Positions 1 through 7,545 of a stretch of DNA of 7,545 bases are shown here, piece by piece. The stretch is from IMG/VR virus record IMGVR_UViG_2693429524_000008. One strand, 5' to 3'. The notes beneath the pieces are model-generated. The model was given only the letters and a program-made list of their open reading frames with translations, was not told where the DNA came from and did no database searches. Both the position numbers and the translations under genes were made by a program. Every line of letters begins with the position of its first letter. The stretch's first letter is position 1. Source of the stretch: a virus. Lineage: Duplodnaviria > Heunggongvirae > Uroviricota > Caudoviricetes.

Positions 1-111
1 CATACTCCTCCGGCAGAAGCAGAAAAAGCTTATTATGCTTCCATCGGAAACGATGATCTGGCAGCCTGAGTTCACAGATAAAACACTCTCCAGGAAACCC
101 GGGGCGGTTCA
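1..111 (+). mobile_element. 3' terminal fragment of an IS3-family insertion sequence (IS629/IS1203-like): transposase OrfB C-terminus (1..69) plus about 25 bp right terminal inverted repeat (87..111); element body lies outside the window to the left
   Basis: Seen: 1..111 is the exact reverse complement of 7435..7545. Frame +1 of 1..69 reads HTPPAEAEKAYYASIGNDDLAA-stop, which fits the conserved C-terminal tail of IS3-family DDE transposases. Read from the tip the end is 5'-TGAACCGCCCCGGGTTTCCTGGAGA, the TG...CA terminus typical of IS3-family inverted repeats. The IS629-like assignment is from memory, not a database hit. Confidence 0.6.
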
Positions 112-530
112 GGTTTTGGCGTGTATTCTGGAACAGGTTTCCCTTTTTTTCTGCATGCTTCTGCCCTGAGTCTCCAGTTTTCCTCATGACGCCGGTTCGT
201 CATTTTCTGCATTGCTGAATAAATTTTTGATTCAGTAATGTCTCTTAGTTGCATTCCTGCGAAATGTTGAAGCCAGAATCCGATCCGGCTTTTGTCATCG
301 TCCAGTGATTTTTTATGTGCTTTCTCTTCAAGCCACCTGACACACGCTTCCTCGAACGTTATATCAGGTATTTCACCAAGTTTGCTGACCCGCCATGCTT
401 CAGCCTTTAGCTTGTCATGGAGTTCTGTCGCCTGCCTTTTGTCCTTTGTTCCAAGAGACTGTTTAAATCTTTTACCGTTCGGCAATGTGAAACTGGCGTA
501 CCATATTTCACCTCTGCGGAAGAGTGACAT
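72..530 (-). pseudogene. int: Phage tyrosine integrase, N-terminal fragment only (integrase-derived part 112..530, about 139 codons; the last 13 codons and stop are read from IS sequence)
   Basis: ORF 72..530 (152 aa) begins [31 protein letters not shown]..., recalled as the N-terminus of DLP12/IntD-like lambdoid integrases (arm-binding and start of core-binding domain). The catalytic domain with the R/H-x-x-R/Y active-site residues is completely absent. Integrase-like sequence stops at the IS junction at 111/112. Position next to xis and orientation are lambdoid-typical. Confidence 0.75.
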
Positions 531-3468: not shown

Positions 3469-3946
3469 AAAAAGAGCGGTACCAGCCGGAAGCAAGTGTA
3501 CAAACTGGTACCGCCAAAGCAGTGGCTGTTGTGGTGACCGGTGCTGATCTCCGGCTTGCGGTTATTTCAGACTCTCACGGGCGTTTAATTGCCCCGCCGA
3601 ACAGCTCTTTTCCGCAATAGCTGCAATGTCTTTCGCGCATCAGTCTGCGCATTCACCACAACGCTGAGAGCACTTAGCCAGTTACGGCACCACACTTTGT
3701 CGCGGTTCCATAAATGCCCTCATCGTTGCACCCTGGTCTCTTCCCAGGCGTCAAACCGAATCGCCACGCTGGTTAGGCGTCTTATCAGCATCATCATTGA
3801 CTTGCACATTCCGGCTACCTGGTTTGTTTGCTCGAGCAAGGAGTGGATTGTCCCCTTTAACGTCACCAGACCGCTAACGACGCATGTGCCATACGCCGTG
3901 TTACAACCAAATTTTGTTTTAATCTTGCCTGTGTTATGTTTCTTTT

Positions 3947-3980
3947 AGATACATTGTGTATCTCATGGATACATTGTCAA
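3947..3980 (-). promoter_or_regulatory. Candidate leftward early promoter (pL-like) with overlapping operator: minus-strand -35 TTGACA (3975..3980), 16-nt spacer, -10 CACAAT (3953..3958); perfect 17-bp palindrome AGATACA-TTG-TGTATCT (3947..3963) plus a second GATACATTG half-site copy (3968..3976)
   Basis: Consensus -35 hexamer and palindrome seen directly; the -10 is weak (lacks the first T). Position immediately downstream of the repressor terminator and upstream of the leftward gene block fits an oL/pL arrangement. Confidence 0.4.
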
Positions 3981-3983
3981 GTA

Positions 3984-4006
3984 TAAAAAAACCTGCCGAA
4001 GCAGGT
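3984..4006 (-). terminator. Rho-independent terminator for the repressor gene (minus-strand RNA: ACCUGC-UUCG-GCAGGU followed by a U-tract)
   Basis: 6-bp perfect stem (3991..3996 / 4001..4006) with a UUCG tetraloop, followed on the minus strand by a run of six to seven T (3984..3990), beginning 13 nt after the repressor stop codon (4020..4022). Confidence 0.7.
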
Positions 4007-4019
4007 TCATAAATATTGA

Positions 4020-4694
4020 TTAGGCCTTTATTGTGTATCTTCTTGGTTTTCCCGAGAAAATCACTGTACCAATTATAGAGCAATTACCGTTAATCTTAAT
4101 GTAAGGCTCAGGCCAGTTTGGGTTTAATGCTTTGAGATAACGCTGTGTTCCATCTTCTATCAATCGCTTGAAGGTGGTTTCGCCTGTATCGTGCATCAAT
4201 GCAATAACGTCGTCACCGTGGCAGGCAGGGACTTCGGGATCAACAAAAATCATGTCTCCAGGGCGGTACTCATCAATCATTGAATCACCAATCACCCGCA
4301 AGATATAAGTCATTTCGCCACAGGGTACAGGGCAGGGATACGTTTCTGCTGTGCTCAAATCAACCTCAGAATAGCCAACTTCTTTCCATGCTCCGGCCTG
4401 TACCCATGATATGACAGGGACTAACGTTATTTGTTTGTTAGTGATTGAAACATCAGGTTTTTTTGTGATGTTCGTTGTCTGGTGTTCTTGATCAAGCCAT
4501 CCGACAGGCAGGTCGAAACATTTTTCGATGTGCCGTGCCATGCTGTCACCGATATTTTTAGTAGCGCCATCCCCCATAAACCTGCTGGTCTGGGTTGGCT
4601 CGCGATCAATCATGGTGGCAAAGGATGAATTTCCGCCAACACCATCTCTCAGTTTTCTGGCGTTAGACCGCCGGATGTCATGGATTGTTTTCAT
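4020..4694 (-). CDS. CI-like prophage repressor: N-terminal HTH domain plus C-terminal S24 (LexA/UmuD-like) autopeptidase domain, 224 aa
   Basis: C-terminal half carries the S24 signature: putative Ala-Gly cleavage site (VQAGAW), Ser nucleophile in VIGDSM and Lys in TFKRL. Divergently oriented to a Cro-like gene across an operator-bearing spacer. Confidence 0.8.
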   Translation of the reverse strand: MKTIHDIRRSNARKLRDGVGGNSSFATMIDREPTQTSRFMGDGATKNIGDSMARHIEKCFDLPVGWLDQEHQTTNITKKPDVSITNKQITLVPVISWVQAGAWKEVGYSEVDLSTAETYPCPVPCGEMTYILRVIGDSMIDEYRPGDMIFVDPEVPACHGDDVIALMHDTGETTFKRLIEDGTQRYLKALNPNWPEPYIKINGNCSIIGTVIFSGKPRRYTIKA

Positions 4695-4710
4695 AACGAA
4701 ATTAAAACCT

Positions 4711-4780
4711 TTGTACCGATAAGGTACAAGTATCTTGAGGGTTCATTTCAATCATGTAATATGTATACCGTAGGTACATA
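4711..4780. promoter_or_regulatory. Immunity-region operator/promoter cluster: perfect 19-bp palindrome TTGTACC-GATAA-GGTACAA (4711..4729), imperfect palindrome TGTATACC-GTA-GGTACATA (4762..4780), and a rightward promoter -35 TTGAGG (4735..4740) / -10 TAATAT (4757..4762)
   Basis: Palindromes and hexamers read directly from the 90-bp spacer between the divergent repressor (start 4694) and cro-like (start 4785) genes; the second palindrome overlaps the -10 and predicted transcription start. Confidence 0.5.
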
Positions 4781-4784
4781 TTGT

Positions 4785-4985
4785 ATGAAAGCGTACTGGG
4801 ACTCTTTAACCAAAGAACAGCAGGGCGAGTTGGCCGGAAAAGTTGGCTCAACACCTGGCTACTTACGGCTGGTTTTCAATGGTTATAAAAAAGCCAGTTT
4901 TGTGCTGGCTAAAAAACTTGAGCAATGCACGTCAGGTGCAATTACGAAATCTGACTTAAGACCGGATATCTATCCGAAAGATTAA
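4785..4985 (+). CDS. Cro-like HTH regulator (YdaS/DUF1019-type), 66 aa
   Basis: Within ORF 4680..4985; start placed at ATG 4785 (MKAYWDSLTKEQQGELAGKVGSTPGYLRLVFNGYKKASFVLAKKLEQCTSGAITKSDLRPDIYPKD) because the upstream part of the ORF overlaps the promoter/operators. An HTH followed by the DLRPDI motif is characteristic of YdaS-type Cro proteins. Confidence 0.6.
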   Translation: MKAYWDSLTKEQQGELAGKVGSTPGYLRLVFNGYKKASFVLAKKLEQCTSGAITKSDLRPDIYPKD

Positions 4986-5016: not shown

Positions 5017-5580
5017 ATGAGGCTAACCGTGGGTAAGCATCACTGGAAAGTAGAAAAACAGCCTGAGTGGTACGTGAAAGCTGTCAGAAAAACTATCGCA
5101 GCGTTGCCGGGTGGTTACGCTGAAGCAGCTGACTGGCTGGATGTAACAGAGAACGCATTATTTAACCGCCTTCGTGCCTATGGCGATCAGATTTTCCCGC
5201 TGGGATGGGCAATGGTTTTACAGCGCGCGGCTGGCACTCACTACATTGCGGATGCTGTCGCACAGTCTGCTGGTGGGGTGTTCGTATCGCTTCCTGAAAT
5301 TGAGGAAGTAGAGAACGCCGATATAAACCAGCGCCTGCTGGAAGTCATTGAACAGATCGGCAGTTATTCAAAACAGATTCGTTCAGCAATTGAAGACGGT
5401 GTAGTGGAACCGAATGAGAAGACAGCAATTAACGACGAGCTGTACCTCTCAATTTCGAAGCTGCAGGAGCATGCAGCACTGGTCTACAAAATTTTTTGCA
5501 TTTCAGAAAGTAATGACGCCCGCGAGTGTGCAGCTCCGGGCGCCGTGGCGTGTCGTGACTGTGGAGAAACTAACGCATGA
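5017..5580 (+). CDS. CII-like phage regulatory protein (CP76-type), 187 aa; possible alternative GTG start at 5029 with a GAGG Shine-Dalgarno
   Basis: Position directly after cro; sequence features (WYVKAV..., [37 protein letters not shown]...) match my recollection of the enterobacterial phage CII/CP76 family. Its stop overlaps the next ATG as ATGA (5577..5580). Confidence 0.55.
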
Positions 5581-6555: not shown

Positions 6556-7437
6556 ATGAAAAATACTGTAAAAATAAACAGTATTGATTTAATCAACGCT
6601 GATTGCCTGCATTTTATTCAGTCCCTGCCTGATGATTCCATTGACCTGATTGTTACCGATCCGCCTTACTTCAAGGTGAAACCTAACGGTTGGGACAATC
6701 AGTGGAAAGGGGACGAAGATTACCTTAAGTGGCTGGACCACTGTCTGGCCCAGTTCTGGCGGGTGTTAAAACCTGCCGGAAGCCTTTACCTGTTCTGTGG
6801 GCATCGCCTGGCATCTGATATTGAGATCATGATGCGTGAACGTTTCAACGTGCTTAACCATATCATCTGGGCGAAGCCGTCCGGACGTTGGAATGGGTGT
6901 AATAAAGAAAGTCTGCGCGCATATTTTCCTGCCACAGAGCGCGTTCTGTTTGCTGAACATTACCAGGGGCCATATCGCGGCAAAAGTGACGGCTATGCAG
7001 CAAAAGAAAGGGAACTCAAACAGCACATAATGGCACCGCTGATATCGTATTTCAGGGATGCTCGTGCCGAACTGGGTATAACGGCAAAACAAATTGCCGA
7101 AGCCACAGGTAAGAAAAATATGGTTTCCCACTGGTTTGGTGCCAGTCAGTGGCAGTTGCCGAATGAGGCTGACTATCGGAAGTTACAGGCACTGTTTTCC
7201 CGTATAGCGGCAGAGAAGTTTCAGGAACAACAACTGGAACAACCACACCACCAGCTGGTGGCATCTTATGATTCACTGAATCGCAAATATTCTGAATTGC
7301 TGGATGAGTTTAAATCTCTCCGGCGCTATTTCTCCGTATCAGTCTCCGTGCCTTATACCGATGTCTGGATGCATAAACCCGTTCAGTTCTACCCGGGTAA
7401 ACATCCGTGTGAGAAACCGGCGGATATGCTCAGGTGA
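6556..7437 (+). pseudogene. N6-adenine DNA methyltransferase (beta-class, phage Dam-like), 3'-truncated at the IS junction (methyltransferase-derived part 6556..7434)
   Basis: Catalytic motif IV, IVTDPPYF, near the N-terminus; the ORF ends ...YPGKHPCEKPADMLR-stop, six residues after the HP-x-x-KP motif that normally precedes the C-terminal AdoMet-binding motif (DPF-x-GSGTT type), which is missing. The TGA stop (7435..7437) is the first three bases of the IS terminal repeat. Confidence 0.75.
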
Positions 7438-7545
7438 ACCGCCCCGGGTTTCCTGGAGAGTGTTTTATCTGTGAACTCAGGCTGCCAGATCATCGTTTCC
7501 GATGGAAGCATAATAAGCTTTTTCTGCTTCTGCCGGAGGAGTATG
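7435..7545 (-). mobile_element. 3' terminal fragment of a second IS3-family (IS629/IS1203-like) copy in inverted orientation: right terminal inverted repeat starting TGAACC at 7435, transposase C-terminus on the minus strand (7477..7545)
   Basis: Exact reverse complement of 1..111; same reasoning as for the left-hand fragment. Confidence 0.6.

Follow-up and report, generated by a model that had tools for sequence, protein, structure and literature searches.

Predicted operators and promoters of an SfV/e14-type lysis/lysogeny switch in a prophage remnant

The spacer between the divergent repressor and cro genes of the window (by which we mean the whole 7,545-nt stretch of viral DNA analysed here) very probably constitutes the right operator/promoter region of a lambda-like switch between lysis and lysogeny, of the SfV/e14 immunity type and served by one family of 17-bp operators. 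Judged from the sequence, its palindromes are predicted binding sites, the operators of an ordinary lambda-like prophage switch. An earlier note on this DNA had described a compact divergent repressor/cro switch, and this description held: the flanking genes encode an S24-domain protein and a protein with a Cro-type helix-turn-helix, and the rightward promoter is conserved. The same note had also proposed two distinct operators (N5 versus N3 spacing), implying two different binding proteins. This proposal was not supported, as both spacer sites and two further sites at the leftward promoter share the pattern TGTA-N9-TACA.

Layout of the spacer and its promoters

Direct reading of the sequence placed the cro ATG at 4785 and the start codon of the repressor, on the minus strand, at 4692-4694, leaving a spacer of 90 bp (4695-4784; Table 1). 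The spacer coordinates given earlier were thereby borne out. The perfect 19-bp palindrome reported for the spacer is also present, with TTGTACCGATAAGGTACAA at 4711-4729 forming a perfect 7-N5-7 repeat. For the second palindrome, a better and conserved axis was found 1 bp to the left of the one first proposed (centre 4770), which yields TGTATA-CCGTA-GGTACA, the same 6-N5-6 arrangement as in the first palindrome. The operator form common to both is TGTAYC-N5-GRTACA, 17 bp long, with the core TGTA-N9-TACA.

Table 1. Features of the two regulatory regions and the genes between and beside them, in window coordinates
Feature	Position	Strand	Description
Putative OL2	3937..3953	.	TGTTTC-TTTTA-GATACA; one core mismatch; about -7 to +10 of the leftward promoter
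Leftward early promoter (PL analogue)	3953..3980	-	TTGACA (3980..3975), 16 nt, CACAAT (3958..3953); scan score 10/12
Putative OL1	3957..3973	.	TGTATC-TCATG-GATACA; exact core match; between -35 and -10 of the leftward early promoter
Intrinsic terminator after the repressor gene	3989..4008	-	8 pairs, then a T-run (terminator scan)
CI-type repressor gene, YmfK/CohE type	4020..4694	-	224 aa; probable N-terminal DNA-binding domain, and S24 autopeptidase domain
Repressor promoter -10 (PRM analogue)	4701..4706	-	TTTAAT; 6 nt from the ATG; nnnAAT kept in relatives
Putative distal operator	4712..4728	.	TGTACC-GATAA-GGTACA; core of the perfect 19-bp palindrome; -18 to -34 of the repressor promoter
Possible third, degenerate operator (middle site)	4729..4745	.	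AGTATC-TTGAG-GGTTCA; 10/12 half-site positions; overlaps the PR -35
PR, rightward promoter	4735..4762	+	-35 TTGAGG (4735-4740), 16-nt spacer, -10 TAATAT (4757-4762)
Putative proximal operator	4762..4778	.	TGTATA-CCGTA-GGTACA; about -7 to +10 of PR
Cro-like gene, YmfT/CroE type	4785..4985	+	66 aa; probable YdaS-type helix-turn-helix

All parts of the rightward promoter proposed in the earlier note were found, and they are conserved in relatives. PR matches 8 of 12 consensus positions and was not called by our promoter scan because this falls below the threshold of 9. In the 20-sequence comparison described below, the pattern TTGnnG-N16-yAnnAT was kept, with TTG in 19/20 and A2 and T6 of the -10 hexamer in 20/20, and the spacing between the sites that flank it was fixed in all relatives. 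The predicted start lies near 4769. The last T of the -10 hexamer is also the first base of the proximal operator, whose centre and right half hold the cro ribosome-binding site as well (GTAGG in the window and GGAGG in most relatives).

On the other side of the spacer, nnnAAT stands 6 nt ahead of the repressor ATG in the 20 sequences (7 nt in one relative). No Shine-Dalgarno sequence was found in the 6 nt before the ATG, which are variable among the 20 relatives. With the -10 element only 6 nt from the ATG, the repressor mRNA is predicted to be leaderless. The ymfK mRNA of the K-12 prophage e14 is one of only five E. coli mRNAs with a leader of <10 nt as determined by dRNA-seq (PMC4681348, Fig. 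2E), and the K-12 sequence is identical across the stretch from the repressor-promoter -10 to the ATG. The -35 element, TTGTAC on the minus strand (4729..4724), lies 17 bases upstream of the -10. It consists of the right arm of the distal operator plus A4729, and so coincides with the perfect palindrome's right arm. The predicted start of PR and the start of the repressor promoter are ~75 bp apart, in back-to-back orientation.

A second cluster of sites was found at the leftward early promoter. Putative OL1 is located just past the 3' end of the repressor gene, and OL2 adjoins it. The placement of OL2 at the leftward promoter is the same as that of the proximal operator at PR, each site starting on the final T of the respective -10 hexamer. 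The -10 itself reads CACAAT in the window, compared with CATAAT in the 19 other compared sequences and in 79 of the 80 viral contigs introduced below. The intrinsic terminator after the repressor gene is also annotated in phages SfV and Ayreon. Further to the left of this promoter, in a poorly coding stretch, we observed a 25-nt inverted repeat (3380-3404/3444-3468) whose arms are 84% complementary and separated by 39 nt.

Exact copies of TGTA-N9-TACA number three in the 7545-bp window, compared with 0.09 expected, and none of 200 shuffled sequences reached three. A scan of the window showed that all three are confined to the two regulatory regions, and a fourth copy, which departs from the core at one position, stands beside OL1 (3937-3953). 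As the operator pattern was picked after the data had been seen, conservation serves as the independent test. Loose half-sites (TGTAYC) occurred 16 times in the window against ~7.8 expected, six of them inside the two regulatory regions, which together span 141 bp. Unpaired half-sites (TGTAYC or GRTACA) were also seen within the repressor coding sequence, at 4034, 4065, 4185, 4324 and 4399, with no 6-N5-6 pair among them.

No LexA box (CTGT-N8-ACAG, allowing up to 1 mismatch) was detected in the spacer, while the rest of the window held 6 such matches versus 2.9 expected. The only exact LexA-box-like match in the window is CTGTAAAAATAAACAG (CTGT-N8-ACAG) at 6566-6581, a short way into the methylase gene, and may be either an SOS box or a chance occurrence.

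Conservation of the sites and competing readings

To obtain relatives, one genome per species was scanned, which gave 17 usable sequences with repressor identities of 74-100%, representing 14 genera of Enterobacterales and one contig labelled Martelella alba. Together with phages SfV and Ayreon and the window itself, these formed a comparison set of n=20. A separate population set comprised 80 viral contigs whose repressor is ≥99% identical to that of the window; the scan returned no lower identity, and we use the 80 contigs for a population footprint and not to test co-variation of repressor and operator.

In the comparison set, the half-site positions of the distal site carried 1.7 to 2 bits and its central 5 bp only 0.2 to 0.6 bits. 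OL1 gave a similar profile, with 1.7 to 2 bits at the half-sites except for position 5 (C or T), which carried 1 bit; over both sites, the central five positions ranged from 0.2 to 0.8 bits. At the proximal site, TGTA and GGTACA were invariant in 20/20, and most relatives have nnGGA in the centre, a consequence of GGAGG, the cro ribosome-binding site, being located there. The start-to-start distance between the distal and proximal sites was 50 bp in all 20 sequences. T4711, which flanks the distal site within the perfect palindrome, was not conserved among relatives, indicating that the operator unit is 17 bp and not 19 bp. In OL2, GRTACA was kept in 19/20 (the remaining sequence reads GAGTACA), and the left half was variable and weak. 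Across the 20 sequences, the conserved blocks of the spacer could all be assigned, namely to the -10 of PRM, the operators, the -35 and -10 of PR, and the cro ribosome-binding site.

The population set gave a footprint of the same kind. Among the 80 contigs, 5 of 10 central positions were polymorphic compared with 2 of 24 half-site positions (Fisher p = 0.014); one of the two variable half-site positions was changed in a single contig, and the other was the degenerate position 5. The distal-site polymorphisms, at 4719 and 4722, are both central. The common polymorphisms of the proximal site fall at 4766, 4768, 4769 and 4771, sparing the cores. The window itself carries rare variants in the right operator region, G4739 and T4771, each present in 3 of 81 sequences. 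The right half of OL1 reads GATACA in the window, whereas it reads GGTACA in all 19 other compared sequences and in nearly all contigs. These rare window variants (CACAAT, GATACA, G4739 and T4771) could reflect decay in a defective remnant.

The middle site is a possible third operator. It may play an OR2-like role, with its centre near -43 relative to the repressor promoter and near -32 relative to PR, and lambda OR2 sits at a roughly similar distance from its promoters. GGTTCA, A4729, G4730 and C4734 were invariant in the 20 relatives, and among the distant ones position 4 of the left half varied (A, G or T). No gap separates the site from the distal operator, and their centres are 17 bp (~1.6 helical turns) apart, a geometry that is awkward for cooperative binding. 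A serious competitor, to which we assign somewhat less than an even chance, is that only two real operators exist at OR, that the distal one serves pure negative autoregulation of a repressor promoter without positive control, and that GGTTCA is something else, e.g. a promoter-context element. The variation at position 4, compared with the invariant TGTA of the accepted sites, agrees with this reading, as does the missing gap, and the TTG inside the middle site is already accounted for by the PR -35. However, a promoter spacer has no known need of a GGTTCA that is invariant in 20/20 relatives, and the position of the site near that of lambda OR2 also argues for a third operator. In addition, the -35 of the repressor promoter (TTGTAC) is weak and might need help.

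A different reading, which we consider very unlikely, takes the two palindromes as sites of different kinds (7-N5-7 and 8-N3-8), bound by different proteins (repressor versus Cro or CII) with different dimer geometry. The imperfect palindrome described in the earlier note does exist: the second site of the window can be written as TGTATACC-GTA-GGTACATA (4762-4780), with 6/8 pairs on the N3 axis, and its left half departs from the other sites at positions 5 and 6. The N3 axis, however, was not conserved. In TGTACACAGGAGGTACATA, the commonest sequence of the proximal site among relatives, it retained 4/8 pairs, compared with 5/6 on the N5 axis, and the TGTA/TACA pair of the N5 axis was present in 20/20. 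The extra C-G pairs of the N3 reading (4768 and 4769) fall on positions that are commonly polymorphic in phages with the same repressor. Moreover, the 6-N5-6 form recurs at the leftward promoter, and no unexplained conserved motif is left in the spacer to house a second type of site.

We rejected as scarcely credible the suggestion that the perfect palindrome acts at the RNA level, as a minus-strand hairpin or intrinsic terminator, instead of as a protein-binding site. The terminator scan did report a 7-pair stem (4729..4711, minus strand) with AGGTTTTAAT after it. However, the mapped leaderless repressor start is downstream of this hairpin, which is thus absent from the repressor transcript. 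The fold is unremarkable compared with shuffles (-9.7 kcal/mol, z -1.5), relatives lack the T-run, the sequence of the arms is conserved without compensatory changes, the only two changes (TGTATC and AGTACC) are one-sided, and the same palindrome sequence recurs on promoter elements elsewhere in the window.

Regulatory proteins and gene context

The assignment of the repressor to the S24 type in the earlier note was confirmed. Its match to Pfam Peptidase_S24 (PF00717) has an E-value of 1.5e-26 (92.8 bits against a cut-off of 23.3), and it also matched PHROG_4, transcriptional repressor (7.5e-49), and structures of the lambda cI C-terminal domain (E 1.8e-9). In the HMMER alignment with lambda cI, VQAGAW/VQAGMF, GDSM/GNSM and TFKRL/TFKKL put the Ala-Gly cleavage site and the Ser and Lys of the catalytic dyad in register. 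No Pfam helix-turn-helix family was matched by the N-terminus at E ≤ 0.01. Residues 1-76 gave a weak match to the structure of the Rep repressor (5d50, E 0.0018) and matches to PHROG repressor families at 1e-11 to 1e-13.

The small gene had been called Cro-like, and this call is supported by a match to PHROG_35, transcriptional repressor (3e-15), and by a homologue annotated as cro in SfV. Its score against Pfam YdaS_toxin (PF15943) was 25.1 bits, below the cut-off of 30, and no NCBIfam match was obtained. The protein weakly matched structures of the CP-933P Cro (8co2 and 8c7k, E 0.01), and its RefSeq homologue is named 'YdaS family helix-turn-helix protein'. In E. coli SCPM-O-B-8794, the cro frame extends to 235 aa, with an apparent deletion fusing it to a downstream gene; in the K-12 strain MGY it has the normal 66 aa. 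Within cro, AAAAAAGCCAGTTTTGTGCTGGCTAAAAAA (4888-4916) forms a hairpin between A and T runs, which the scan scored as terminator-like on the antisense strand (4910..4892). If real, this terminator would stop leftward transcripts from beyond cro, e.g. those of a CII-activated promoter.

The next gene encodes a CII-like protein, with matches to the YmfL family of NCBIfam (1.5e-49), the PHROG CII-like activator family (9e-70) and Pfam CP76 (5.5e-14). The resulting order of repressor, Cro-like and CII-like genes is the lambdoid order. SfV-type phages have been stated to lack CII in the SfIV genome paper (PMC3851460); in contrast, three profile libraries grouped this protein with CII-like regulators. 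The start of the CII-like gene (5017-5580) is most likely GTG 5029, which follows GAGG as in relatives (VG..W.VEKQP), and not ATG 5017. We also considered a direct repeat, ACAGAAC-N15-ACAGAAC, situated between cro and the CII-like gene, as a CII-type site, and discarded it, as only the second copy (ACCACAGAA) is conserved in relatives. This copy, just upstream of the CII-like gene, is conserved across genera.

The two ends of the window (1-111 and 7435-7545) form a perfect 111-nt inverted repeat, which is 100% identical to a terminal stretch of an annotated IS3-family insertion sequence in E. coli CP070103 (2630-2740). The inverted IS copies truncate an integrase gene (72-530, minus strand) and a DNA methylase gene (6556-7437, plus strand). 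As genes are cut off by the two inverted copies, we regard the window as a 7.3-kb remnant of a prophage early region bracketed by IS elements.

Relation to known switches and proposed wiring

From these sequence comparisons, the module is an ordinary and already known SfV/e14-type lambdoid immunity region. The region was found in 1324 of 5426 complete E. coli genomes (~a quarter). The earlier note had proposed comparing the half-sites with those of known lambdoid immunity groups; they matched the SfV/e14 group and were unrelated to lambda. Its suggestion of a specificity outside the textbook types was therefore correct in that this is not the specificity of lambda, 434 or P22, but the specificity is not new, being that already described for SfV and e14.

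SfV (GenBank U82619.2) shares 95.5% nucleotide identity with the window over the repressor gene, spacer and cro, with the same half-sites, spacing and promoters. Its record marks 26377-26445 as a 'putative operator region', which corresponds to window positions 4711-4779, from the first through the second palindrome. The few substitutions between the two are nearly all in the central 5 bp of operators. Relative to SfV, the window has the weaker-looking leftward -10 (CACAAT versus CATAAT) and GATACA instead of GGTACA in OL1, and it carries different genes rightward of the CII-like one. The immunity region is also common to SfIV, cdtI, 2H10, Ayreon, some ECOR13-derived phages and the Stx2c-converting series, at 95.4 to 98.9% identity. 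In alignments with SfV, Ayreon and K-12, the differences all fell outside the TGTA/TACA cores.

In E. coli K-12, the e14 genes ymfK (cohE), ymfT (croE) and ymfL form the equivalent module, and the repressor is identical to that of the window at 223 of 224 residues and Cro at 65 of 66. The e14 spacer differs from that of the window at 5 positions, all outside the operator cores. The prophage context is different, as the early region in the window is a 7.3-kb remnant between inverted IS3-family copies. In relatives, the element adjoins tRNA-Thr/proA. The e14 prophage is SOS-inducible. Binding sites of the e14 repressor and Cro were reportedly predicted by comparison with SfV (Mehta et al. 2004, BMC Microbiol 4:4). 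The searchable SfV/e14 literature, of which our coverage was incomplete, yielded no direct binding data (EMSA, footprint or ChIP) for the repressor or Cro. The e14 repressor is listed as an 'SOS-sensitive repressor' (PMC8249747, Table 2).

A more distant resemblance was seen to the Rac/CP-933P modules (RacR or PaaR2, YdaS, YdaT), which have the same order of a repressor, a divergent Cro-like protein with a YdaS-type helix-turn-helix, and a CII-like regulator. The similarity of the window's Cro to these proteins is weak (E 0.01 to the structures and below the Pfam cut-off). The Rac/CP-933P repressors are not known to carry an S24 domain, and the sites reported for these modules, e.g. TTGATT-N6-AATCAA for YdaT, are unrelated to the operators of the window. 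The Rac repressor mRNA is leaderless (PMC4681348), and experiments on these modules have addressed the roles of the Cro-like and CII-like proteins (PMC11879457).

The window resembles lambda in having 17-bp operators with two-fold symmetry, a repressor with an S24 domain of the self-cleaving type, an operator on the repressor's own promoter and a second operator cluster at the leftward promoter. Like lambda, it has divergent, back-to-back promoters (~75 bp apart here) overlapped by operators, together with a leaderless repressor mRNA, as judged from the conserved elements and the mapped start of the K-12 homologue (PMC4681348). The half-site sequence is unrelated to that of lambda, the Cro protein probably has a YdaS-type helix-turn-helix, the CII-like protein belongs to the YmfL/CP76 family, and no N-like gene was recognised in the window. 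The arrangement of sites also differs. Lambda has a tripartite OR of three adjacent operators with 6-7 bp gaps, whereas the window does not have this arrangement: its two strong sites are 50 bp apart, with at most one degenerate site that abuts one of them.

By analogy with lambda, the switch most likely works as follows. A dimer of the S24 repressor would bind the 17-bp TGTAYC-N5-GRTACA sites, and the small Cro-type protein most probably binds the same operators. The recognition helices of the repressor and Cro look dissimilar, so the sharing of sites is purely an argument from analogy. Repressor bound to the proximal site would shut off cro and the early right operon, because this site covers the predicted PR start and the cro ribosome-binding site. 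With the two further operators on the leftward early promoter, ~800 bp away, joining in the control, repressor on the proximal site and on OL1/OL2 would block both early promoters. A protein at the distal site would lower repressor synthesis, as at lambda OR3; this could be Cro during the lytic cycle or, in a lysogen, surplus repressor. The middle site may take the role of OR2. RecA-stimulated self-cleavage of the repressor would relieve repression.

Two features do not fit a direct transfer from lambda. The operator that best matches the consensus lies on the repressor's own promoter and not on PR, which would be the opposite of the lambda affinity order if consensus match predicted affinity; likewise, the two strong sites are not adjacent as they are in lambda. 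It is conceivable, though in our view unlikely, that the wiring differs meaningfully from that of lambda, with the sole perfectly symmetric, best-consensus operator on the leaderless repressor promoter, a fixed distance of 50 bp and an invariantly 'defective' OR2-like site. If this were true and affinity followed consensus, the repressor would chiefly throttle its own synthesis, and PR would be silenced by a weaker site assisted by looping to the distal site (~5 helical turns) or to the left operators (~800 bp). Such wiring would represent a different solution to the bistable-switch problem, one present in E. coli K-12.

The operator region has been annotated in GenBank for years, and the present analysis carries little weight as a discovery. 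Its contribution is to define the operator by comparative footprinting as a unit of 17 bp, TGTAYC-N5-GRTACA, to place four, possibly five, copies of this predicted operator on three promoters, and to show that the strongest site supplies, with one of its arms, the -35 of the leaderless repressor promoter. The module is carried by Stx2c- and Cdt-converting phages, and it would control the SOS induction of toxin-converting phages and of e14.
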